Assembly (NCBI GenBank): GCA_026397235.1
Contig: JAPLVG010000023.1
Location: forward strand, 1-61,050
Direction: 5' to 3'
Source: Candidatus Berkelbacteria bacterium
GTDB taxonomy: Bacteria; Patescibacteriota; UBA1384; XYA2-FULL-43-10; CAINNR01
DNA length: 61,050 nt
Below the pieces are notes generated by a model, which did no database searches, had not been told where the DNA came from, and worked only from the letters and a program-made list of their open reading frames with translations. Each line of letters begins with the position of its first letter. Positions within the stretch are counted from its first letter, which is position 1. Made by a program: the position numbers and the translations under genes. Below, one piece after another: positions 18,295 to 29,305 of the stretch.

Positions 18295-18308
18295 AAAAAG
18301 GTTGCTTT

Positions 18309-18887
18309 GTGAAAATCTTAATTGGCAAAAAATTAAAGATGACTAGAATCTTCACAGATGAAGGTCTGGTTCGTGCCGTTACCGCTGTGGAAGCAAAGCC
18401 ATGCGAGGTTTCTGAAATCAAATCAGTTAAAAAGGTTGGTTACGACGCAATCAAAGTCAAAACCCAAAATCGAAAAAAGACCAAATATTCTGAATTTCGA
18501 GTAAAACCTGCCTCGCCGGCAGGCAGGGATGGTGAGGTCGAAGCTAAAATTGGCGACAAAATCACTGTGGAAGCTTTCAATGTTGGTGATATGATTACTG
18601 TTATCGGAACCAGCAAAGGAAAAGGTTTCGCTGGTACAGTTAAGCGATATCACTTTGTCAAAGGCCCAGCATCACATGGCTCAAATCAGCAACGCCGAGT
18701 CGGTTCAATTGGGGCAGGTTACCCACAGCGAGTTATTAAGGGTCAGAGAATGCCAGGCCATATGGGTGCCGAGCGAGTTACAGTCAAAAATCTTCAAGTT
18801 GTTGATATCGATGCGAAAAACAACATTATGCTGATTGCCGGTCCAGTTCCAGGTGCTACCGGATCAGAAGTAAGAATAATAGGCTAA
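18309..18887 (+). CDS. rplC: 50S ribosomal protein L3
   Basis: 192 aa, GTG start; SKGKGFAGTVKRYHF and GQRMPGHMG motifs; S10-cluster position. Confidence 0.95.
   Translation: MKILIGKKLKMTRIFTDEGLVRAVTAVEAKPCEVSEIKSVKKVGYDAIKVKTQNRKKTKYSEFRVKPASPAGRDGEVEAKIGDKITVEAFNVGDMITVIGTSKGKGFAGTVKRYHFVKGPASHGSNQQRRVGSIGAGYPQRVIKGQRMPGHMGAERVTVKNLQVVDIDAKNNIMLIAGPVPGATGSEVRIIG
18507..18527. repeat. GC-rich palindrome inside rplC coding sequence
   Basis: CCTGCCT cgccggc AGGCAGG, translated in frame as PASPAGRDG; same core as the rplX palindrome. Confidence 0.8.
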
Positions 18888-18888
18888 T

Positions 18889-19575
18889 ATGAAAATCGAA
18901 TTTTACAAAAAAAACGGCGAGGTTGACGTGCCAGTAGAATATCCCAAGAATCTAGTCTCCGAGGTTTCGGACGCTAGATTGTTGGAATATGTGCGAATGA
19001 TTCGTGCCAACATGCGGGCAAACAACGCTCAGACAAAAGACCGAAGTGAAGTTTCCGGCGGTGGTAAGAAACCATGGAAGCAAAAAGGTACTGGCCGTGC
19101 GCGTGTCGGCTCGTCCCGCTCGCCAATTTGGAGTGGTGGTGGCGTAACTTTTGGTCCAACCAATGATCGCAATTATACAATCAAATTAAACAAAAAAGAA
19201 AAACGTGCTGCGCTTTTGGCTGCAATTTATGCTAAAGTTTCTGCTAAAAAAGCAATTGGCATTTCTGATTTGAAATTTTCGGCGCCAAAAACCGCTGATG
19301 CCGCCAAGGCGCTAGAAAAACTTCCAATTAACGGTAAAGTTATGGTTTTCGTTCCAGCTGCAGATGAAAACGCCAAAAAGTCATTTCGCAATATTCCAAT
19401 TGTCACACTAGCTGTTGCTAATACCATCGATATCATTTCTATTATTTCTGCTGATAGCATTTTGTTCACCAAGGAATCATTGACCGAGCTTGGAGATCAT
19501 TTTACAACCACAGATCGAAAATCACAGATCAGCACTGATAAATCAAAGAAATTGAAAGAGGTAGTAAGTGAATAA
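18889..19575 (+). CDS. rplD: 50S ribosomal protein L4
   Basis: 228 aa; GGGKKPWKQKGTGRAR motif; C-terminal ~20 aa encoded by a heptamer half-array. Confidence 0.95.
   Translation: MKIEFYKKNGEVDVPVEYPKNLVSEVSDARLLEYVRMIRANMRANNAQTKDRSEVSGGGKKPWKQKGTGRARVGSSRSPIWSGGGVTFGPTNDRNYTIKLNKKEKRAALLAAIYAKVSAKKAIGISDLKFSAPKTADAAKALEKLPINGKVMVFVPAADENAKKSFRNIPIVTLAVANTIDIISIISADSILFTKESLTELGDHFTTTDRKSQISTDKSKKLKEVVSE
19509..19539 (+). repeat. Heptamer array, forward arm only, inside the 3' end of rplD
   Basis: CACAGAT 19509, CACAGAT 19523, CACTGAT 19533; translated as ...TTTDRKSQISTDK... Confidence 0.85.
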
Positions 19576-19945
19576 TTTAGTAATAAAAAGCCCAGTAATA
19601 TCCGAAAAAAGCTTTGCTCTTGCTAGCACTGGTGTTTATGTATTTTTGGTTACACCGGAAGCTAACAAGAAAATTGTTGCTACCCAAGTGCACGAAATGT
19701 ATAAAGTCGATGTCGAAGAGGTCAGAATTATTAATATTCCTGGTAAAATTAAAAGAGCTGGTAAGAAAATGGGCCGTCGCTCTGACATCAAAAAGGCTTT
19801 AGTAAAAGTTAAAAAAGGTCAAAAAATTGCAATCTTCGAAGAAGAAAAATCGGACAAGAAAAAGGAAGAAACCACACAGATTGTTGACACAGAAAAAACA
19901 CAGAAAAAACCAAAGGCTGAAGTCAGTGAAAAGTCAGTGAAATGA
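19568..19945 (+). CDS. rplW: 50S ribosomal protein L23
   Basis: 125 aa, GTG start overlapping the rplD end; L23 core (PVISEKSF..., VKKALVKVKKGQKI) plus a ~28-aa tail read through a full heptamer array. Confidence 0.93.
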   Translation: MNNLVIKSPVISEKSFALASTGVYVFLVTPEANKKIVATQVHEMYKVDVEEVRIINIPGKIKRAGKKMGRRSDIKKALVKVKKGQKIAIFEEEKSDKKKEETTQIVDTEKTQKKPKAEVSEKSVK

Positions 19946-19953
19946 AGTCAGAG
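19875..19953. repeat. Full heptamer palindromic array overlapping the rplW 3' end
   Basis: CACAGAT 19875, CACAGAA, CACAGAA; then AGTCAGTG, AGTCAGTG, AGTCAGAG ending at 19953; the rplW stop (19943-19945) lies between reverse units 2 and 3. Confidence 0.85.
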
Positions 19954-19976
19954 TTAGAATTACAATAAAAAACATT

Positions 19977-20804
19977 ATGGCAATTAGAAAATTAAAACCA
20001 AATATGAATTCACAGCGTGGCACAAGCTACTCAGATTTTTCGACTCTTTCAAAAGTCGCCGGTCCAAAGTCACTTCGAGCAATTTTAACCAAAAAAGCAG
20101 GTAGAAATAATACTGGTAGAATCACTGTGGCCCACCGTGGTGGCGGATCAAAGCGATTCTATCGAATCGTTAATTTTGGCACAATTTTAGAAGAATCTGC
20201 CAAAATTGTTGCAATCGAATATGACCCAAACCGCTCTGCTAATATTGCGCTTATCGAATACAGCAATGGCTCACAGGATTATATTCTTGCCCCAGAAAAG
20301 GCTATCGTTGGTACAAAAATCGAAAACAAGGAATTAACAGCTGTAAAACCTGGCAACCGAATGATTTTAAAGAACATTCCAGTTGGAACCGCCGTTCACA
20401 ATATTGAACTGCTTCCGGGCCAAGGTGGAAAACTTTGTCGCAGTGCTGGAAATTCCGCGACACTGCTTTCCATCGATGGCGACATTGCCCAGATTAAACT
20501 CCCTTCATCTGAGGTTCGCCGAATTTCATCGTTTTGCTTTGGTTCAATTGGAACTGTCGGAAACTCTGATACAATGAATAAAGCAGTAGGACGTGCTGGA
20601 AGAACCCGTCACATGGGAATTCGTCCGACTGTTCGCGGTAAAGCCAAAAACCCTTGCGATCATCCACATGGTGGTGGTGAAGGAAATACTTCAATCGGTT
20701 TAACACATCCAAAAACACCATGGGGTATGCCAGCATTGGGTTACAGAACTAGAAATAAAAAAAAGAAATCAAAGTTGATGATAATTAAACGCAGGAGCAA
20801 ATAA
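19977..20804 (+). CDS. rplB: 50S ribosomal protein L2
   Basis: 275 aa; [17 protein letters not shown] motif. Confidence 0.97.
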
Positions 20805-21097
20805 TGTCGAGGTCACTTAAAAAAGGTCCATACATTGACGAGCGACTTTTGAAAAAAGTTGTCGAATCGAAAAAAGCTTCTGGCCGCATTATTGTTAAAA
20901 CCTGGTCAAGAGCATGCGCAATTTCACCAGAAATGGTTGGCGCCACAATCGGGGTTCACAATGGTCGCGAACATACACCGGTTTTAATTGTCGAAGATAT
21001 GATAGGTCACAAACTCGGTGAATTTTCTCCGACCAGAAAATTCCGCCGACATGGTGGCAAAATGGCTAAGGATCAAGCGGTTGAGGAGAAAAAATAG
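20804..21097 (+). CDS. rpsS: 30S ribosomal protein S19
   Basis: 97 aa; [12 protein letters not shown]..., GVHNGREH motif. Confidence 0.97.
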
Positions 21098-21106
21098 CAT
21101 AAGGAA

Positions 21107-21192
21107 GTGTCCAGCCACAGATTTATGTCACAAATTGACACAAATAATACCAAATCTGTGAAAATCTGTGGTAAAGATTTGTGGCTATACAC
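21107..21192. repeat. Full heptamer palindromic array with extended outer stem upstream of rplV
   Basis: GTGTCCAGCCACAGAT...CACAAAT 21129...CACAAAT 21139 / ATCTGTG 21154, ATCTGTG 21164, ATTTGTGGCTATACAC (21177-21192); spacers 6/3 and 3/6. Confidence 0.9.
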
Positions 21193-21204
21193 TACAAAAA
21201 TAAT

Positions 21205-21594
21205 ATGGAAATTAAAGTTAAAAGTAAATATTTGCGGATTTCTCCCCGAAAACTTCGGCCGGTTGTTAACTTTGTACGTGGAATGAACGCAATCGAGGCT
21301 AAATCAAAATTAAAGTTTCAGCCAAACAAGGGCGCAAATATGATTGTTAGCTTAATCGACAACGCCATGTCAGTAGTAAAAAGCGGAGATATGGCATCAG
21401 AGTCATTTTATGTAGCAGCTATTGCTTGCGGCGACGGCCCAAGACTAAAACGTGGCACACCGGTATCGAAAGGCAGAATGGCGCCGATTGTCAAAAGACA
21501 ATCTCACATGACTTTGACACTTTCAGATCAAGCACCTAAGTTACCAAAGAAACTTAAGGCACCTAAGGAGACCCCAAATGGGACAAAAAGTTAA
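21205..21594 (+). CDS. rplV: 50S ribosomal protein L22
   Basis: ATG at 21205 gives MEIKVKSKYLRISPRKLRPV...; the ORF-track GTG start at 21181 lies in the repeat array. Confidence 0.93.
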   Translation: MEIKVKSKYLRISPRKLRPVVNFVRGMNAIEAKSKLKFQPNKGANMIVSLIDNAMSVVKSGDMASESFYVAAIACGDGPRLKRGTPVSKGRMAPIVKRQSHMTLTLSDQAPKLPKKLKAPKETPNGTKS

Positions 21595-22237
21595 TCCAAC
21601 AAGCTGGAGAATCAAAATAAACGAGACCTGGAAGTCCCGCTGGTTTGGTGGCGCAAAATATGCTGAAATGCTGCACGAGGATTTGGCAATTCGAAAATAT
21701 ATTATGACCGAGTATAAATCTGCTGCCATTTCTCGCGTTGAAATTGACCGAGATGCCAATAAAATCACTGTTGCCATCAAAACTGCCCGTCCTGGTGTTA
21801 TTATCGGCAAAGGTGGAGCTGGAGCCAGTAAAATTAAAGAAGGAATTGAAAAATTGCTTCGTGGTAGCAAAGTTAAAATCAATATTGAAGAAATCAGAAA
21901 TCCAGACGCAGATGCCAATGTTGTTGCTCAGAACATCGCCAATCAATTGGAAAAGCGAATGCCTTATCGCCGGGCAATGAAACAAGCAATCGAAAAAGCC
22001 GGTCAATCAAACGTCAAAGGTATTAAAGTTCAAATTTCAGGTCGCTTGAACGGTGCCGAAATCGCTCGGAGTGAAAAAGCCATTTCCGGACTTGTCCCAC
22101 TTTCAACCCTAAAAAGCCAAATCGATTATGCCTATGTGCCAGCACAAACAACTTTCGGCGTTATTGGTATTAAGGTTTGGATTTATAAAGGCGATACACA
22201 GAAATTCGATATGCACACCGGTTACGAAAGTAAATAA
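21578..22237 (+). CDS. rpsC: 30S ribosomal protein S3
   Basis: 219 aa; MGQKVNPTSWR..., KH domain, GRLNGAEIAR motif. Confidence 0.97.
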   Translation: MGQKVNPTSWRIKINETWKSRWFGGAKYAEMLHEDLAIRKYIMTEYKSAAISRVEIDRDANKITVAIKTARPGVIIGKGGAGASKIKEGIEKLLRGSKVKINIEEIRNPDADANVVAQNIANQLEKRMPYRRAMKQAIEKAGQSNVKGIKVQISGRLNGAEIARSEKAISGLVPLSTLKSQIDYAYVPAQTTFGVIGIKVWIYKGDTQKFDMHTGYESK

Positions 22238-22259
22238 AATAATAAAAGGAAAACACCAC

Positions 22260-22325
22260 CACAGATTTTATTCACAGATTGACACAGAAAAATGAATCGG
22301 TGAATATCAGTGAAATAGATCAGTG
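22260..22325. repeat. Full heptamer palindromic array upstream of rplP
   Basis: CACAGAT 22260, CACAGAT 22273, CACAGAA 22283; ATCGGTG 22296, ATCAGTG 22306, ATCAGTG 22319; spacers 6/3 and 3/6. Confidence 0.9.
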
Positions 22326-22342
22326 GAAGTGAAATCAATATT

Positions 22343-22750
22343 ATGTTGTTACCAAAGAAAATGAAACATCGCAAACAACATCGGGGAAAACTACCTGGCA
22401 ATGCCACGCGAGGTTTTGAAATTAACTTTGGTTCATATGCCATTAAAACACTGGAACGCGGTTGGATTTCTGCCCGTCAAATCGAAGCCGCGCGTCGTGC
22501 CATGACCCGCTATATCAAACGCGGTGGCCAAATTTGGATTCGAATCTTTCCAGACAAACCAGTTACACTGACATCAGCTGAGACTCCAATGGGTTCAGGC
22601 AAAGGCGCAGTTGATCACTTTGTTGCAACAGTAAAACCCGGGACCATTCTATTTGAAATGGATGGAGTCGCACCGGAAGTTGCTAAGGAAGCTATGCGGT
22701 TGGCGGCATATAAACTTAGTGTCAAAACTAAATTCTTGGTTAAAGAATAA
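22343..22750 (+). CDS. rplP: 50S ribosomal protein L16
   Basis: 135 aa; [15 protein letters not shown]..., RMGSGKG-type motif (PMGSGKGAV). Confidence 0.97.
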
Positions 22751-22843
22751 GGAATCCAGCTCTTTCATGGGCTGTAATAAAAATAACATCAAAATTATGA
22801 ACATCATCAAATTCAATATAGTAAATTCAACCGAAAGGGCTGG

Positions 22844-23050
22844 ATGAGCAGAGAAAGAATTGAAAAACTAAAAAACATGAAACCAGCGGAGCTTGAAAAA
22901 GAGCGCGGAGTTTTAGTAGCCCATATTCTTGCTTTGCGTGTCGATATTGCTAATCACAAAACCAAGGGAATCCACAAAATTAAGCAAATGAAACGCGATA
23001 TTGCTCGAATCAATACTATTGCCACAATGCGAAAGGAAATCAATGACTAA
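22844..23050 (+). CDS. rpmC: 50S ribosomal protein L29
   Basis: 68 aa; helical L29-like sequence in the canonical position between rplP and rpsQ. Confidence 0.9.
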   Translation: MSRERIEKLKNMKPAELEKERGVLVAHILALRVDIANHKTKGIHKIKQMKRDIARINTIATMRKEIND

Positions 23051-23300
23051 TGAAAAAGCAAAATCTGGGAAAACGCTTAACGGAACAGTTGTTTCAATTG
23101 CAATGAACAAAACAGTGGTTCTTGATGTTGAGAGATCGAAAACCCATCGTCTTTATGGCAAGAGTTTTACAGTTAATACAAAGATAAAGGCCCACAACGA
23201 ATTTGAAAACGTAGCAATTGGTGACACAGTTACAATTACCGAAACCAGACCAATTTCCAAAGAAGTAGCATTCAAAGTTATTAAAGTGGGTGAGAAATGA
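23043..23300 (+). CDS. rpsQ: 30S ribosomal protein S17
   Basis: ATG at 23043 (ATGA overlap with the rpmC stop) gives [18 protein letters not shown]...; S17 OB-fold sequence. Confidence 0.93.
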
Positions 23301-23662
23301 TCCAGCCAGGAACACGACTAATCGTAGCTGACAATAGTGGCGCAAAGGTTGTCGAATGCATCACCACACTTTTTAATTCCAGCCGTGATAAAGCTCACAT
23401 TGGCCAGGTAATTTCTGCATCAGTCAAATCAGCAACACCACGAGCTGGCGTAAAGAAAAAAGAGATTGTTCGTGCCGTTATTGTCCGACAAGCCGCACCT
23501 TTTGGTCGCCCAGATGGCTCGACAATCAAATTCTCTGAAAATGCTGTTGTGATTGTCGATAAAGATGGAAATCCACGTGGAACGCGCGTATTTGGCCCAA
23601 TCCCACGGGAACTTCGAGATGGTTTTATGAAAATAATTTCCTTAGCACCAGAGGTAGTATAA
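23297..23662 (+). CDS. rplN: 50S ribosomal protein L14
   Basis: 121 aa; [17 protein letters not shown]... Confidence 0.97.
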
Positions 23663-23665
23663 CCA

Positions 23666-23696
23666 CACAGATTTATTACACAGAATTAACACAGAA
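23666..23696 (+). repeat. Heptamer array, forward arm only, upstream of rplX
   Basis: CACAGAT 23666, CACAGAA 23679, CACAGAA 23690. Confidence 0.8.
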
Positions 23697-23709
23697 AAAA
23701 TAAAATATT

Positions 23710-24072
23710 ATGAAGATAAGAAAAAATGACAATGTATCAGTAATAGCAGGCAAAGACCGTGGCAAAACCGGTGTAGTTGAGCGTGTTTTCCTAGCCGATG
23801 ACAAAATTGTTGTTACCGGTATTGCTGTTTACAAAAAAAGTGTCAAACCTACCCGCAGAGCCCCAAAAGGTGGAATTATTGAAGTAAATGCCAAAATTCC
23901 TGTTAGTAATGTTGCCATCATCTGCCCCAGCTGTTCAAAAATCACAAAAATTGGTTATTCCGTTTCCGGCGACCTGCCTGCCCTGCCTGCCGGCAGGCAG
24001 GCGGTAAGGCACGGTAAAAAGATTCGTATTTGCAAAAAATGCAAAGCTAGTCTAGAGGTTGAAAAGAAGTAA
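23710..24072 (+). CDS. rplX: 50S ribosomal protein L24 (with CxxC...CxxC and an in-frame palindrome insertion)
   Basis: 120 aa; KOW motif (KIRKNDNVSVIAGKDRGKTG); CPSC...CKKC; extra DLPALPAGRQAVRH segment encoded by a GC-rich palindrome. Confidence 0.93.
   Translation: MKIRKNDNVSVIAGKDRGKTGVVERVFLADDKIVVTGIAVYKKSVKPTRRAPKGGIIEVNAKIPVSNVAIICPSCSKITKIGYSVSGDLPALPAGRQAVRHGKKIRICKKCKASLEVEKK
23971..24001. repeat. GC-rich perfect 20-bp palindrome (plus partial tandem copy) inside rplX
   Basis: CCTGCCTGCC|GGCAGGCAGG at 23982-24001, preceded by a partial tandem copy CCTGCCTGC (23973-23981) that abuts it; in frame. Confidence 0.9.
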
Positions 24073-24073
24073 T

Positions 24074-24652
24074 ATGACAAACTTAAGAACCCGCTACAAC
24101 CAGGAAATGAAAAAAACCCTCAGGGAAGAATTCGGATATAAGAACGATTTTCAAATTCCGAAAATCACCAAAGTTAGCATCAACATGGGTCTTGGTGAGG
24201 CAAAAGATTCCGAAGAAATTCTTAAGAACGCAATTTCCGCCATGGAGCAAATCACTGGACAAAAACCAAGAATTAACAAATCTCGTAAATCAATTTCTGG
24301 TTTTAAACTTCGCGAAGGTCAAATTGTCGGAATTTCAGTTACACTTCGCGGCGATAGAATGTTTGATTTCATTGAAAGGTTAACTACTGTTGCACTTCCT
24401 CGCATTCGAGATTTCCGCGGTGTAAACGACAAAAGCTTCGACAAATGCGGCAATTTTTCACTCGGAATCCGCGAACACATTATTTTTCCGGAAATCAAAT
24501 TTGATCAAGTAAAAAATTCAATCTGCTTGCAAGTAAATATTTCGACAACTGCCAAAGATCAAGCAGAAGGAAAAAGACTGTTGGAACTTTTTGGCTTTCC
24601 TTTTAACAAAAAAGCAGCCCCTGGGGTAAAGACTGGAGAACAAAATGGCTAG
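24074..24652 (+). CDS. rplE: 50S ribosomal protein L5
   Basis: ATG at 24074, 1 nt after the rplX stop; [11 protein letters not shown]..., typical L5. Confidence 0.95.
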
Positions 24653-24830
24653 AGAAGCGTTGGTTGTAAAAGCAAATAGAAAACCAAAATTTTCAACACG
24701 AATAGTAAGACGTTGCCGTGTTTGTGGTCGTAGACGCGGATATTATAGAAAATTCCAAGTATGCCGAATCTGCTTGCGAGAAATCGCTGGCCGTGGTGAG
24801 CTTCCTGGTGTAACAAAATCTTCATGGTAA
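24645..24830 (+). CDS. rpsN: 30S ribosomal protein S14, short zinc-binding type
   Basis: 61 aa; [20 protein letters not shown] (CxxC...CxxC). Confidence 0.95.
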
Positions 24831-24852
24831 ATAATAAGGAAGTAAAAACTCT

Positions 24853-24922
24853 CACAGATCAATTGTCACAGATGAACACAGATAAGAAAAAATCAGTGAA
24901 TATCAGTGTTGACAGATCAGTG
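24853..24922. repeat. Full heptamer palindromic array upstream of rpsH
   Basis: CACAGAT 24853, 24867, 24877; ATCAGTG 24892, 24902, 24916; spacers 7/3 and 3/7. The 5' half, including AATAAGGAAGTAAAAACT, is ~90% identical to the array at 58181. Confidence 0.9.
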
Positions 24923-24959
24923 AAAGTTTATATTACATTTTAGAATAAAGAGAGACAAC

Positions 24960-25337
24960 ATGGATCCAATAGCTGACATGCTAACAACAATTCGAAACAA
25001 CATGGCTGCTGGTAACGAGCAGGCACTAGTTCCACATTCCAAACTGAAACTAGCTGTTTTGGAGCTTTTGAAGCTGAAACAAATCATTGATGGTTTTGAA
25101 GTCGAAGAAATCGAATTCAAAAAAATGATCAAAGTTTCAGTCAAACGAAGCAATATTTTGCCTCACTTAAAGCGAATTTCTAAACCGGGACGTCGTGTTT
25201 TTGTAAAAGCTAAAGATATCAAAGCTCCGCTTTCTGGTCTTGGCTTCGTTATTGTTTCCACTCCAAAGGGGATACTAACAGGCGCACAAGCGAAAAAGAT
25301 TGGTGTTGGCGGTGAATTAATCTGTGAGGTTTGGTAG
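24960..25337 (+). CDS. rpsH: 30S ribosomal protein S8
   Basis: 125 aa; MDPIADMLTTIRN... Confidence 0.96.
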   Translation: MDPIADMLTTIRNNMAAGNEQALVPHSKLKLAVLELLKLKQIIDGFEVEEIEFKKMIKVSVKRSNILPHLKRISKPGRRVFVKAKDIKAPLSGLGFVIVSTPKGILTGAQAKKIGVGGELICEVW

Positions 25338-25339
25338 AA

Positions 25340-25416
25340 CACTGACCAATCCCACTGATTTAGCACTGATAAATGAATTCTTTGGTCAGTGAAAAGTCAG
25401 TGTAGATAAGTCAGTG
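25340..25416. repeat. Full heptamer palindromic array (CACTGAC/GTCAGTG words) upstream of rplF
   Basis: CACTGAC 25340, CACTGAT 25353, CACTGAT 25364; GTCAGTG 25385, 25396, 25410; here all 7 positions can pair (one G-U). Confidence 0.9.
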
Positions 25417-25443
25417 TTAGAATAATCAATTAATGGAATTATC

Positions 25444-25989
25444 ATGTCAAGAGTAGGAAATAAAATTATCATCATTCCCGAAGGCGTAACAGTTGTTAAC
25501 AGTGGCGCTAAAGTAACTGTAACTGGGCCAAAAGGCACAAGCGATTTTACTTTGTCCGAAGGAATTACAGTCAAAGCTGAAGATGGTGAAGTCAAAGTTT
25601 CCCGCCGCGATAATAGCAAAATTCAGAGATCACTTCGTGGTACCAGTGCGCGAGTAATTGGAAACATTATCACTGGGCTTTCTACCGGCTTTGTCCGCAG
25701 GCTAGATTTCAAAGGTGTTGGTTTTACCATTGTTGTTGAAGGGAATATTATGACCATGCGTTTGGGTTACTCTCACCCGGTGATTCTTAACATCCCAGAA
25801 GGCATTACAGTGACGGTTGTCAAAAGCGCTATCAATATTGAAGGCTCGAGCAAAGAAGCCGTTGGTGCGTTTGCTGCCAAACTTAGAGATACCAAAAAAC
25901 CGGAAGTTTATAAAGGTAAAGGTATCAAATATCACGAAGAAATTATTAGAAAGAAGGCCGGAAAAGCCGCTCAGGCAACAGCAAAATAA
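25444..25989 (+). CDS. rplF: 50S ribosomal protein L6
   Basis: 181 aa; MSRVGNKIIIIPEGV... Confidence 0.96.
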   Translation: MSRVGNKIIIIPEGVTVVNSGAKVTVTGPKGTSDFTLSEGITVKAEDGEVKVSRRDNSKIQRSLRGTSARVIGNIITGLSTGFVRRLDFKGVGFTIVVEGNIMTMRLGYSHPVILNIPEGITVTVVKSAINIEGSSKEAVGAFAAKLRDTKKPEVYKGKGIKYHEEIIRKKAGKAAQATAK

Positions 25990-25998
25990 GGAAATAAT

Positions 25999-26325
25999 AT
26001 GGCATTAAAGATACAAAGAAAAAAACGAATAACCAATAAAATCACTGCTAACTCTGCGCGACCTCGCATGGTTATTTTCCGATCAAACAAAGAAATCTAT
26101 GCTTCAATTATCGATGATTCTGGTAAAGTTATTGCCGCTTCCTCTAGCCTAAAAGTAAGTGAAAAAAATAAAACTAAGGCTGCTGAACTTGTCGGTGCCG
26201 ATATCGCTGCACGTGCCAAGGAGAAAAAAGTTTTAGAAATTGTTTTTGATCGTCGCGGATACCGTTATCACGGACGAGTTGCGGCATTGGCCGAAGCTGC
26301 CCGAAAAGCCGGACTAAAATTCTAA
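25999..26325 (+). CDS. rplR: 50S ribosomal protein L18
   Basis: 108 aa; RPRMVIFRSNKEIYASIID..., FDRRGYRYHGRV motif. Confidence 0.93.
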   Translation: MALKIQRKKRITNKITANSARPRMVIFRSNKEIYASIIDDSGKVIAASSSLKVSEKNKTKAAELVGADIAARAKEKKVLEIVFDRRGYRYHGRVAALAEAARKAGLKF

Positions 26326-26361
26326 TGGCGCTCAGCGCCATATTAACCACGCTCAGCGTGG
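26326..26361. repeat. Twin GC-rich mini-hairpins in the rplR-rpsE spacer
   Basis: TGGCGC tca GCGCCA (26326-26340) and CCACGC tca GCGTGG (26347-26361), same loop. Confidence 0.8.
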
Positions 26362-26373
26362 AAGGATAATATT

Positions 26374-27090
26374 ATGGATAAACCAAGAAGAGAAAGAAAA
26401 GATCGCAACGACCAAGGCTCAGAATTTGAAGAGCGGGTAGTTGAAATTTCCCGCGTTTCCCGCGTGGTTAAAGGTGGCCGCAGAATTCGTTTCCGTGTTC
26501 TCATTGTTATTGGTGATAAAAAAGGCAAAATTGGTTACGGCATTGCTAAGGGCAATGAAATTGCCGTTGCGGTTAAAAAAGCTGTTTCCTTTGCTAAGAA
26601 AAAAATGATTATCGTTCCTGTGGTAAATGACACCATTCCATACGAAGTCAACCAAACTCTTGGAAGCGCTCGTGTATTTCTAAAACCAGCAGCCCAAGGT
26701 ACGTCAGTCGTTGCTGGTGGTGTTGTCCGCGTCATCGCTGAACTTTCTGGAATCAAAAACCTGCTGTCAAAAACTATTGGTACATCAAATAAAGTAAATA
26801 ATGTAAAAACTGTTTTCTTGGCACTTTCTAGTTTTGATCCAGCAAAAGTTGAAATCGTTAAAAAGCGATATGCGGATAAAAAGGTAGAAACTACACTGAT
26901 TGTTGACACGGAATTGGACACAGAAAAACAGCCGATTGTAGAAGTTGCGCCTCAGTCAAAGGTTGATGGGTCTATGACCCAAGTTGCTGATATTGCTGAA
27001 GCAGGTGCCGAAGTTATTCCAGCTGAAGCAAAAGCTGAAAAAACAGAAAAGTCAAAAAAGATCGTAAAATCAAAGGCTGTTAAGAAATAA
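26374..27090 (+). CDS. rpsE: 30S ribosomal protein S5 with ~70-aa C-terminal extension
   Basis: 238 aa; S5 core (VSRVVKGGRRIRFRVLIVIGD..., GTSVVAGG); the extension begins at a heptamer half-array. Confidence 0.95.
   Translation: MDKPRRERKDRNDQGSEFEERVVEISRVSRVVKGGRRIRFRVLIVIGDKKGKIGYGIAKGNEIAVAVKKAVSFAKKKMIIVPVVNDTIPYEVNQTLGSARVFLKPAAQGTSVVAGGVVRVIAELSGIKNLLSKTIGTSNKVNNVKTVFLALSSFDPAKVEIVKKRYADKKVETTLIVDTELDTEKQPIVEVAPQSKVDGSMTQVADIAEAGAEVIPAEAKAEKTEKSKKIVKSKAVKK
26894..26925 (+). repeat. Heptamer array, forward arm only, inside rpsE
   Basis: CACTGAT 26894, CACGGAA 26907, CACAGAA 26919; translated ...TLIVDTELDTEK... Confidence 0.75.
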
Positions 27091-27134
27091 AGTTAGTAAG
27101 TTAGTAAAGTTCGTAATTTGGTAGGAGATATTGC

Positions 27135-27602
27135 ATGAAGTTACATGAATTAAAAAAAGTTGATAAAACAGTAAACCGCAAGCGAGTTGGCCGCGGTATT
27201 TCTGCTGGTGGCGGGAAAACTGCTGGTCGCGGTACTAAAGGCCAAAATTCTCGTTCCGGTCACAATATCCCACGAAAATTTGAAGGTGGCCAAACACCTC
27301 TGGCCATGCGTTTGCATAAACTCAAAGGTTTCAAAAGTTTGAAAGCCGATAAAATCGTCGTCACACTAGATGAAATCTCGAAAAATTTTAAAGCTGGCGA
27401 AACCGTATCATCTGCAACGCTGATGGAAAAAGGATTGCTGAAAAAAGGCCAAAAGGCCAAAGTTCTGAATACTGGCACACTAACTGTTGCAATTAAACTA
27501 GCAGAAGATGTTTCTACCTCCGAATCTGTATTAGAAATTATCAACAAACCTCGGCCAAAGGCCGATCAGCCTATGGCTGAGAAAGTCTCGTCGACCAAAT
27601 AA
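27135..27602 (+). CDS. rplO: 50S ribosomal protein L15
   Basis: 155 aa; [21 protein letters not shown] motif; directly follows rpsE (no rpmD). Confidence 0.93.
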
Positions 27603-27612
27603 ATAGTCTCTC

Positions 27613-27650
27613 AAAAAAAACTGGCCGAACTAATTAAGCCAGTTTTTTTT
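27613..27650 (+). terminator. Strong hairpin with flanking A8/T8 runs after rplO
   Basis: AAAAAAAACTGGC (27613-27625) / GCCAGTTTTTTTT (27638-27650). Confidence 0.75.
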
Positions 27651-27721
27651 GTACCTTGTTATTGAGTTTAGCGCACAAAAAGCGTACACTTTAGGCATAA
27701 ACTTGTCGATGCAAGATAATT

Positions 27722-28114
27722 ATGACTGATGAAATATTGAGCAAAATTGCAATCTTCCAGAAAAAAGAAATTCGCCGAGTCATTTTCAAAAATGAATGGT
27801 GGTTTGTGGTTGAAGACGTTGTTTTGGCATTGATCAACTCAAATGATCCAAAACAGTATATACAGCGTATGAAACTACGAGATTCCGAGTTAAGAAAAGG
27901 GTGGGTACAAATTGTACAGACCCTCCCGGTAGATACTCTTGGCGGTAAGCAGAAAATGGTTTGCGCCACAGCTGAGGGTTTGTTTCGCATTATTCAGTCT
28001 ATATCCTCGCCCAAAGCAGAACCGTTCAAACGCTGGCTAGCCAAAGTTGGTTACAAGCCTTCTCTCCCTGTCATTGCGAGCCATTTGTTTTTGTGTGAAG
28101 GCGCGGCAATCTAA
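27722..28114 (+). pseudogene. Bro-N-domain (antirepressor/DinD-like) gene, C-terminally truncated by the GIY-YIG element
   Basis: IAIFQKKEIRRVIFKNEWWFVVEDVVLAL...GGKQKMVCATAEGLFRII...AEPFKRWLAKV resembles Bro-N; the last ~20 codons (KPSLPVIASHLFLCEGAAI*) read into the GTCATTGCGAG repeat. Confidence 0.6.
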
Positions 28115-28441
28115 TAAATGAAATTAAAACGATATTATGTCTATTTGATGGTGAATCCTGCAAACTCTGTAATCTATGCCGGAGTCACAAACAATTTAAT
28201 TCGACGTGTGTTTGAACACAAGTGTAAGTTTATTGAGGGATTTACCAAAAAATACAATACAACAAAAGTAGTATATTGGGAGTGTTTTGATGATGTGAAA
28301 TCAGCCATAAATCGCGAGAAACAAATTAAATCAGGTTCCAGGCAAAAGAAAATTGATTTGATAATAAAACATAATCCCAAATTTAATGATTTGTACGGGG
28401 ATCTTTTGTAAGATTGCTTCGTCGTTCCTTCTCGCAATGAC
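28070..28441 (+). mobile_element. GTCAT...ATGAC hairpin element carrying a GIY-YIG ORF in its apical loop (filled copy)
   Basis: Outer arms GTCATTGCGAG (28070-28080) / CTCGCAATGAC (28431-28441); inner arms GGCAATCT (~28106-28113) / AGATTGC (28411-28417). The ORF lies exactly between the inner arms; an empty copy is at 56452-56555. Confidence 0.7.
28118..28411 (+). CDS. Small GIY-YIG nuclease-family protein
   Basis: 97 aa; YYVYLMV...VIYAGVTNNLIRRVFEHK...REKQIK matches the GIY-(x10)-YIG, R, E pattern. Confidence 0.85.
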   Translation: MKLKRYYVYLMVNPANSVIYAGVTNNLIRRVFEHKCKFIEGFTKKYNTTKVVYWECFDDVKSAINREKQIKSGSRQKKIDLIIKHNPKFNDLYGDLL

Positions 28442-28443
28442 GG

Positions 28444-28566
28444 AACCACGCAAAGGCCGGTGGGAATATTGCCGGTGGGGCGAGAAAAAATCTGGAAAAA
28501 CGGCTAGGCAGATCTGTCATCTCAAAACAAAATTATTTACCAAAGAAGAATAAATCAATTGAATAA
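28444..28566 (+). pseudogene. Possible orphan C-terminal fragment of the disrupted Bro-N/DinD-like gene
   Basis: Frame gives NHAKAGGNIAGGARKNLEKRLGRSVISKQNYLPKKNKSIE*, which I recall as typical of the C-terminus of this family; no start codon. Confidence 0.3.
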
Positions 28567-28570
28567 TCTT

Positions 28571-29305
28571 ATGAAAAACATTTTTTTAAAATCAATTTTG
28601 GGTGTCTTACTGTTTGTAGCATTTGTCGTGCTGGCTTTAGTTGCAATCTCCGGCGACAAAAAAGCAAAAGCTGTCGATGTTTGTTGGCAAAAAAACAATG
28701 GGCGCTACTCTTTTGGTGACTCAAACAAGGACTACGAAACAAAGTCATTGTGCCAATCAAACTATGTCTTGTACATGGAAATCGTAAATGGCACTGGTCC
28801 TCAATGCGTATCTGATCTTACCCAAAATGGAACATTTTCTGGCAGAGGGCAGACGTTCAGCACCAAGGAACAATGCAGAGCCTCTTTGCTTGCAACTTAC
28901 AATATGTCGGAATCCCGACCAACCTCGACTTCAAATGCCCCAACCTGCAATTATTCAAATGAATCAGCAAGTTGGAGGAGTAATTTACAAACAAAAATTA
29001 CCGCTTTGTATGCAGAGCTTTTAAAAAGAACTACCAACTCAAATGATTTTGCATATTGGCAGTCGGCGATGCCTTTTCGCAGTTGTGGCCAAACAATTGA
29101 CGAAACAAGCATTCGAGCATTTATTCAGACATCCGAAGAGTACAAGAATCTTCAAGCCGCGAGTACAACTGTTCAACCAGCTATTACCAACCAAAGTACC
29201 GAAGTTCAACTTGTAACCAAAACCGAAGCTCCAAAAACTGGTTTTCTTAACTATATTAAATCTATTCCTTCTCGCATCGCCAACTTTTTTAAGAGATTAT
29301 TTTAA
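28571..29305 (+). CDS. Secreted/membrane-anchored Cys-repeat protein with DUF4214-like C-terminal segment
   Basis: ATG at 28571 (ORF track TTG at 28559); N-terminal hydrophobic segment; two Cys-bounded ~28-aa repeats; LYAELLKRTTNSNDFAYWQS...IRAFIQTSEEY resembles DUF4214. Confidence 0.55.
   Translation: MKNIFLKSILGVLLFVAFVVLALVAISGDKKAKAVDVCWQKNNGRYSFGDSNKDYETKSLCQSNYVLYMEIVNGTGPQCVSDLTQNGTFSGRGQTFSTKEQCRASLLATYNMSESRPTSTSNAPTCNYSNESASWRSNLQTKITALYAELLKRTTNSNDFAYWQSAMPFRSCGQTIDETSIRAFIQTSEEYKNLQAASTTVQPAITNQSTEVQLVTKTEAPKTGFLNYIKSIPSRIANFFKRLF

Follow-up and report, generated by a model that had tools for sequence, protein, structure and literature searches.

Rickettsia palindromic elements (RPEs) are repeats of about 100-150 nt that are confined to the Rickettsiales and do not encode a transposase within the repeat. 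The mobile GC clusters of yeast mitochondria are short GC-rich palindromes in an AT-rich genome, and some of them lie in frame (in var1) or in rRNA. RPEs were reportedly described by Ogata et al. in 2000, and the Wolbachia palindromic elements are said to be related to them. Hairpin repeats can also be paired with a nuclease. The single-domain GIY-YIG Ssn proteins are site-specific ssDNA nucleases that cut beside a hairpin. Each gene has hairpin repeats of its own (NTS/SRM) on both sides, and these repeats also exist as many solo copies (Chenal et al. 2025, PMC11893778). The same authors considered an IS-like mobile unit (PMC11893778). Phage T4 SegB is a free-standing GIY-YIG homing endonuclease encoded in a tRNA gene cluster (PMC2330249).

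The locus described here lies in a 61,050-nt stretch of DNA (the window) from a Candidatus Berkelbacteria bacterium. The initial annotation had proposed that ribosomal protein L24 carries a perfect GC-rich palindrome, abutted by a partial tandem copy and inserted in frame. The host gene is rplX (23710..24072, forward strand), an ORF of 120 codons whose product, uL24, matches solved uL24 chains at E=1e-19; uL24 orthologues are 105-109 aa long. The palindrome, which we call P, has the sequence CCTGCCTGCCGGCAGGCAGG and occupies 23982-24001. It reads CCTGCCTGCC|GGCAGGCAGG, a perfect 20-bp palindrome without a loop, and forms the core that sequence and family searches recover across phyla. The supposed partial tandem copy, CCTGCCTGC, is present at 23973-23981 and pairs in the predicted fold with CGGTAAGGCACGG at 24002..24014, a diverged arm variant that recurs after P elsewhere. 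Both arms are on the forward strand, and with P they form a composite palindromic insertion of 42 nt, CCTGCCTGC-CCTGCCTGCCGGCAGGCAGG-CGGTAAGGCACGG (23973..24014, forward strand), which appears as a clean gap in DNA alignments. The alignment with four relatives (G003, G001, G006 and G009) places a gap of exactly 42 nt between ...tccggcga and taaaaag.... Translation across the insert gives ...KIGYSVSG-DLPALPAGRQAVRH-GKKIRICKKC, and the inserted segment itself encodes (D)LPALPAGRQAVRH(G). In the protein alignment this segment is missing from all 29 relatives of the same order, two of which belong to the same genus and share 84-85% protein identity with the uL24 studied here. No empty-site rplX allele was found among the metagenome contigs searched. 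The orthologue alignments thus bear out the in-frame insertion into L24, and the palindromic insert in rplX is confirmed as real.

A second insertion is located in rplC (uL3; 18309..18887, forward strand), an ORF for which orthologues were retrieved. The claim that the same core occurs in this gene proved right for a related 21-nt form, CCTGCCTCGCCGGCAGGCAGG, at 18507..18527 on the forward strand. It is a variant of P with an extra C in the left arm and encodes PASPAGR. Against three relatives (G003, G001 and G009), the aligned gap measures 21 nt and corresponds exactly to the palindrome, and no target-site duplication was found in this alignment. The predicted peptides across the insert junctions are IGYSVSGDLPALPAGR and VKPASPAGR. 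Throughout the window the pattern CCTGCC(N0-12)GGCAGG has four matches against 0.01 expected from window shuffles. The region 18300-28600 gave no match to Rfam families.

An assembly or sequencing artefact should be considered, since the genome is a scaffolded metagenome assembly with runs of N and chimeric reads can make palindromes. However, a Logan contig from run SRR20698639, whose sample may be the same as that of the assembly, is 100% identical over 21111-24113 (3003 nt), insert included. Furthermore, both essential genes stay in frame despite their inserts, many laboratories have obtained the identical 20-mer in their assemblies, cultured isolates carry it too, and its positions in tRNA loops recur. 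With an independent assembly in agreement, an intact frame in both genes and carriers among cultured isolates, an artefact is extremely unlikely.

The insert in uL24 sits in the turn of the C-terminal β-hairpin, between two CxxC pairs, and in the alignment with solved chains its position corresponds to the hairpin turn VxGD|KK. An AlphaFold model based on 27 sequences has a mean pLDDT of 81.5. Residues 89-101 are its only stretch with pLDDT below 50, with strands 81-85 and 104-108 on either side and four invariant cysteines flanking it, and the modelled turn with its insert is shown as disordered. The length of the same C-terminal turn varies naturally among other uL24s. A second uL24 with an insert at the same codon (P0002, 121 aa) is encoded on a Logan contig from SRR22388063 (L237 101-466). 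Its insert consists of P-like arms, GCTTGCCC ... CCGGCAGGCAGGG, around a different palindrome, TTCGATCGAGCTCATCGAA. The P0002 organism has a nucleotide identity of 69.6% to the window's genome, as compared to 75.5% for the insert-free same-genus genomes. Because it is thus more distant than relatives that lack the insert, the turn was either hit twice or lost its insert repeatedly.

An insert in a ribosomal protein gene could also serve the host, as an mRNA hairpin that tunes translation or stability in the ribosomal operon, or as a lineage-specific extension of uL24. The 42-nt insert is predicted to fold as a nested RNA hairpin of -33.7 kcal/mol (z=-3.4), which is strong, and the presence of an insert at the same codon in the more distant P0002 protein would agree with such a role. 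On the other hand, the same sequence occurs in unrelated genes, tRNA fragments, intergenic DNA, viral contigs and many phyla. It is absent from the closest relatives, there is no Rfam match, and the encoded peptide is predicted to be disordered. The unrelated contexts and the absence from close relatives make a host function very improbable, and nothing suggests that the host benefits from the insert.

The motif is found well beyond the two ribosomal protein genes, and a wider family of the kind for which the annotation proposed a search does exist. The window's genome (925 kb in 28 contigs) has five copies. Besides those in rplC and rplX, contig 3 has two that lie outside long ORFs, and contig 4 has one. 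The exact 20-mer is expected about 5e-8 times per 925-kb genome at 40% GC. Other GC-rich hairpins of this genome are unrelated to P in sequence. A link of the two intergenic copies to heptamer arrays was considered and dropped, as only single heptamers lie nearby. Of 41 genomes of the order, 24 have the 13-mer core GCCGGCAGGCAGG, in at most about 23 copies, as compared to 0-1 for the reversed control; the three same-genus genomes lack it. With one genome per species, the matches listed place the exact 20-mer on more than 120 contigs, against about 0.5 expected by chance if uniform composition is assumed. These listed matches include Patescibacteria of many classes, Omnitrophota, Bacteroidota and Planctomycetota, and further labels are Gamma- and Deltaproteobacteria, Bdellovibrionales, Thermodesulfovibrio and Chloroflexi. 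Cultured Bacteroidota are among the carriers (Winogradskyella, Flagellimonas, Longitalea, Flavivirga), and 35 viral contigs contain the exact 20-mer. The P family is therefore spread across phyla. A description of P was not found in the literature, whether searched by DNA string, peptide or topic.

Other copies of P are also in-frame insertions relative to the orthologues of this genome. LepA gains 7 aa (GLPAGRQ) and RfbB 15 aa, and further cases are FtsK, ribosomal protein S6, RecG and a reverse transcriptase. The coding copies that were checked keep the reading frame, with insert lengths of 21 nt in rplC, 42 nt in rplX, 21 nt in LepA and 45 nt in RfbB. Every verified coding insert has a length divisible by three, which led us to reject an RNA-level intron. 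Stop codons are absent from all six frames of P and from the frame in which the 42-nt form is read. Verified protein copies mostly read as LPAGRQ. Of 143 distinct P sites, 34 lie in a frame without a stop for 40 codons or more to either side and the majority are non-coding; the copy-rich genome G035 has almost no copies in such open frames. At a repeat interrupted by P (L066) the net gain is exactly 20 nt, without duplication. This 20-nt gain, as compared to 21, 42 and 45 nt in genes, suggests that junctions are imprecise and that selection then favours copies that keep the frame.

The 42-nt nested form behaves as a unit that is also found elsewhere. An rfbB gene on a contig labelled Gammaproteobacteria (L083) matches its first 39 nt without a difference and reads them as DLPALPAGRQAVRQG, and near-identical copies of the composite are intergenic in other Patescibacteria families and also occur in RNase HI genes. 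The variant arm CGGTAAGGCA(A/G/C)GG follows P in L083, G172, G272 and L258-L261, and nested copies, in which P lies within another P-like palindrome, are recurrent. Contigs from groundwater metagenomes (L259-L261) carry a 46-nt composite in frame in RNase HI, flanked by the 15-nt direct repeat CTAAGCTAGAAGCTA. Flanking duplication of this 15-nt type is absent from the rplX and rplC inserts. Two further contigs, from WWE3 (L105, around position 2000) and Daviesbacteria (L109, around 3381), share the insert GLPAGRQG and resemble each other in the residues after it, (n/e)IF..D.WG, and the Daviesbacteria protein aligns to ribosomal protein S6. The shared insert suggests a recurrent hit or a transfer.

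The sites at which P is found show no clear target motif. Neither a target-site duplication nor a target consensus was found at P sites, apart from an A/T bias in the flanks with A at -1 and T at +1. Loops of hairpins with a stem of at least 8 bp are modestly enriched as targets (3.4% vs 0.4%). Hairpin-loop targeting was rejected as a general rule because it accounts for a minority of sites only. A k-mer search of the flanks returned nothing but a repeat of about 120 nt that is specific to G035. This repeat is intergenic, and of 20 perfect P copies retrieved from G035, 13 occupy its exact centre. On G035 contig C1 (e.g. L239-L257), the repeat has the ends TGTCATCCCGA... and ...TCGAAATGACA and two internal hairpins. 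These ends are similar to the hairpin repeats on either side of Ssn-type nuclease genes.

Clustering of the ORFs near P sites yielded a single recurrent family, of about 80 aa, with a Pfam match to GIY-YIG. Such an ORF is found 16-38 nt downstream of P at 6 of the 139 distinct sites, with P on its coding strand in every case; 0.39 sites would be expected by chance (P=3e-6). Five of the six sites share an arrangement in which a 5' fragment of a tRNA gene is followed by the GIY-YIG ORF and then by a second copy of the tRNA 5' end. P is located in the D- or anticodon loop of the tRNA 5' fragment in these five cassettes, and ARAGORN finds a complete tRNA in four. At the sixth site (L122), P and the GIY-YIG domain lie in frame inside a 714-aa ORF. 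Further P/GIY-YIG pairs are present in G032, G040 and G020, and one viral contig holds a full cassette of P and nuclease. A P-linked GIY-YIG gene in WWE3 RIFOXYC1_FULL_40_10 (L099), for instance, belongs to a tRNA-Lys cassette. A subset of P copies is therefore linked to small GIY-YIG genes in tRNA-invading cassettes. The P-linked nucleases have no NCBIfam name and Pfam assigns them to GIY-YIG only; one of them has 34% identity (E=1e-14) to the product of the Ssn-like gene in the window. About 96% of the perfect copies in the sample tested are solo, and no nuclease gene was found beside any P copy in the window's genome. The numbers of copies and of GIY-YIG genes do not track each other, with about 23 copies vs 6 genes in G035 and 3 vs 18 in G039.

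Several arrangements of tRNA genes and GIY-YIG genes were noted besides these pairs. The window's genome has 11 GIY-YIG matches, five or six of them directly upstream of tRNA genes. Small GIY-YIG genes of this genome (G000), at C5:41270-41653, C22:1377-1760, C3:76334-76760 and C10:3144-3490, directly precede tRNA-Asp, -Glu, -Ala and -Ser, respectively, and the one upstream of tRNA-Glu carries a stop codon. At tRNA-Asp, tRNA-Glu and tRNA-Ala there is, further upstream, a displaced 5' fragment with another GC-rich hairpin in the D-arm. On C4 (68803-69010; L001 2304-2511, minus strand), the first 35 nt of tRNA-Ile(UAU) are duplicated ahead of the intact gene, and in this upstream copy P separates GGTA from GAGC in the D-loop. 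The two copies enclose no ORF, and the tRNA itself is the sole gathering-level Rfam match at the site, which looks like a decayed nuclease cassette. On two viral contigs (L220 2239-2330 and L197 around 8616), P lies in the variable region of tRNA-Met, and ARAGORN still calls a 92-nt tRNA-Met with P as if it were a long extra arm. In G036 (L038 around 1790-2100, contig C4), 3' of a P/GIY-YIG cassette, a second tRNA copy has a long structured-looking insert past the anticodon stem. ARAGORN gave no tRNA call for this second copy, and the insert may be an intron. Within the window, the rplO terminator is followed by a Bro-N-like ORF (27722-28114) and a 97-aa GIY-YIG gene (28118-28411), which is bracketed by the inverted words GTCATTGCGAG (around 28070) and CTCGCAATGAC (around 28432). 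These resemble the Ssn/NTS hairpin repeats.

The explanation that we consider probable is that P is a very small selfish element, tolerated in frame as translated loops in rplX and rplC and presumably spread by a nuclease of the GIY-YIG type. By analogy with Ssn, such a nuclease is the best candidate for mobilizing P. A trans-acting single-domain GIY-YIG nuclease would recognize the P hairpin in single-stranded DNA, and copies of P would then be inserted into exposed loops or where the nuclease has cut. Junctions would be imprecise, so that inside genes only copies with a length divisible by three would persist. The element would have entered rplX and rplC after the split from the same-genus relatives. 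Its persistence there would reflect a net length of 3n, the lack of stop codons in frame and landing in a surface turn. Given these three properties, the inserts would be read as short loops rich in Pro, Gly and Arg that the ribosome tolerates. The loops are expected to be LPALPAGRQAVRH in uL24, at the tip of the C-terminal zinc-ribbon hairpin, and PASPAGR in uL3. Several observations speak against the mechanism, namely the high share of solo copies, the lack of a nuclease gene next to any copy in the window's genome, copy numbers that are not in step with GIY-YIG gene counts, and the missing target motif. A further point against it is that an insert of 20 nt needs an extra base, gained in the same event, to stay in frame in an essential gene.

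A more specific mechanism can also be formulated. In this case P would be the cognate ssDNA hairpin of a distinct, tRNA-invading clade of GIY-YIG nucleases, which would write the bare hairpin into loops or breaks, ORFs included. It would be carried between phyla by phages or cassettes and kept letter-identical by recognition through the enzyme. We put this forward tentatively and regard it as possible but rather doubtful.

The in-frame arrangement at L122, where P and then the GIY-YIG domain are read within the 714-aa ORF, could also indicate that P is what remains of a larger element. Half-palindromes would have bounded an in-frame nuclease cassette in rplX or rplC, and after loss of the interior the ends would have been joined as P. 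The repeat of G035 could be explained similarly, with P at the centre of inverted hairpin pairs, the position where full-length elements carry the gene. However, P is whole and located 5' of the gene in every cassette seen, and the halves never flank it. A separated pair of CCTGCCTGCC ... GGCAGGCAGG around a gene was not found in the window's genome, and the insert in rplC is exactly the palindrome with clean junctions. A domain of about 80 aa within an essential uL24 of 106 aa also seems unlikely to have been viable. Loss of the interior of a larger element is in our opinion an unlikely origin of P.

A different mobilizing enzyme can be considered as well. P is short, GC-rich, mostly intergenic and at times located in hairpin loops, in which it resembles REP/REPIN-type elements moved as single-stranded hairpins by a Y1 transposase (RAYT, IS200/IS605-like). 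In the window's genome, C22:5735-5968 matches Y1_Tnp weakly and in part. Yet no Y1_Tnp (PF01797) match was detected in the copy-rich G035 (about 23 copies, 96% complete, 6 contigs) or in G023, which is likewise copy-rich. The Y1 matches of G000 and G006 are weak and partial, and the one in G000 is on C22, a contig without P. There are tens of copies rather than hundreds, P was not seen beside a Y1 gene, and GIY-YIG is the only recurrent neighbouring gene family. Mobilization by a Y1 transposase thus appears quite improbable.

The preferred reading, a very small selfish element tolerated in genes, has several consequences. It implies that in a reduced genome selfish DNA can be accommodated, as translated loops, even by genes as conserved and essential as those for uL24 and uL3. 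The occurrence of an unchanged 20-base sequence among distant phyla points to a sequence-specific mobilizing enzyme and frequent horizontal spread. If the link to GIY-YIG nucleases is true, the pairing of Ssn nuclease and hairpin extends to tRNA-gene invasion and protein remodelling, and if the hairpin is written by the nuclease, P would be among the smallest mobile elements known. The inserts mark insertion-tolerant loops, and they are spurious indels in the marker-gene alignments used for the phylogeny of uncultured bacteria.

The comparison with known systems starts with the RPEs, which the initial annotation had cited as a parallel. The reading of P as an RPE-like selfish palindrome is supported by in-frame inserts in rplX, rplC, LepA, RfbB and RNase HI and by a wide family. 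In both cases selfish palindromic repeats lie in frame in essential genes and are read as extra surface segments. The two differ in length and distribution, on which the comparison is based. P inserts are 20-46 nt around a 20-nt core, as compared to about 100-150 nt for RPEs, and P is letter-identical over many phyla, low in copy number and in a subset of cases associated with GIY-YIG/tRNA cassettes. The likeness to RPEs holds for behaviour but not for membership. The yeast mitochondrial GC clusters differ in being organellar, in having another sequence and in their characteristic flanking duplications, of which there are none for P at rplX and rplC. REP/BIME sequences with RAYT (REPINs) are, like P, dispersed short GC-rich palindromes that are thought to be moved in trans by a hairpin-recognizing enzyme. 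In contrast, no Y1 transposase was found in association with P, which occurs in tens of copies, is loopless, has coding copies and is the same across phyla. REPINs are extragenic and number in the hundreds, whereas P has five copies here and at most about 23 among the 41 relatives, several of them intragenic.

The Ssn system shares with P a single-domain GIY-YIG protein of about 80-100 aa and a short hairpin repeat with many gene-less copies. Moreover, the flanks of the GIY-YIG gene in the window (28118-28411) resemble the NTS/SRM consensus. P itself, when compared by eye, does not match the SRM consensus CGTCATTCCCGCG...GCGGGAATC and shares no motif with CGTCATTCCCGCGMAVGCGGGAATCYRG, and it is found only 5' of its nuclease gene, within a displaced tRNA fragment. 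The words tRNA, in-frame and Patescibacteria do not occur in the Ssn paper (PMC11893778), and tRNA invasion or in-frame coding copies are therefore not reported there. SegB resembles the P-linked nucleases as the product of a small GIY-YIG gene among or inside tRNA genes that spreads selfishly. The cassettes described here differ in that they split the tRNA gene and supply a replacement 5' part, while a GC hairpin, often P, sits in the displaced fragment. For SegB, neither such a palindrome partner nor solo copies in proteins are known. P thus adds to two known kinds of element, the selfish palindromic repeats with a nuclease partner and the RPE-like in-frame inserts.
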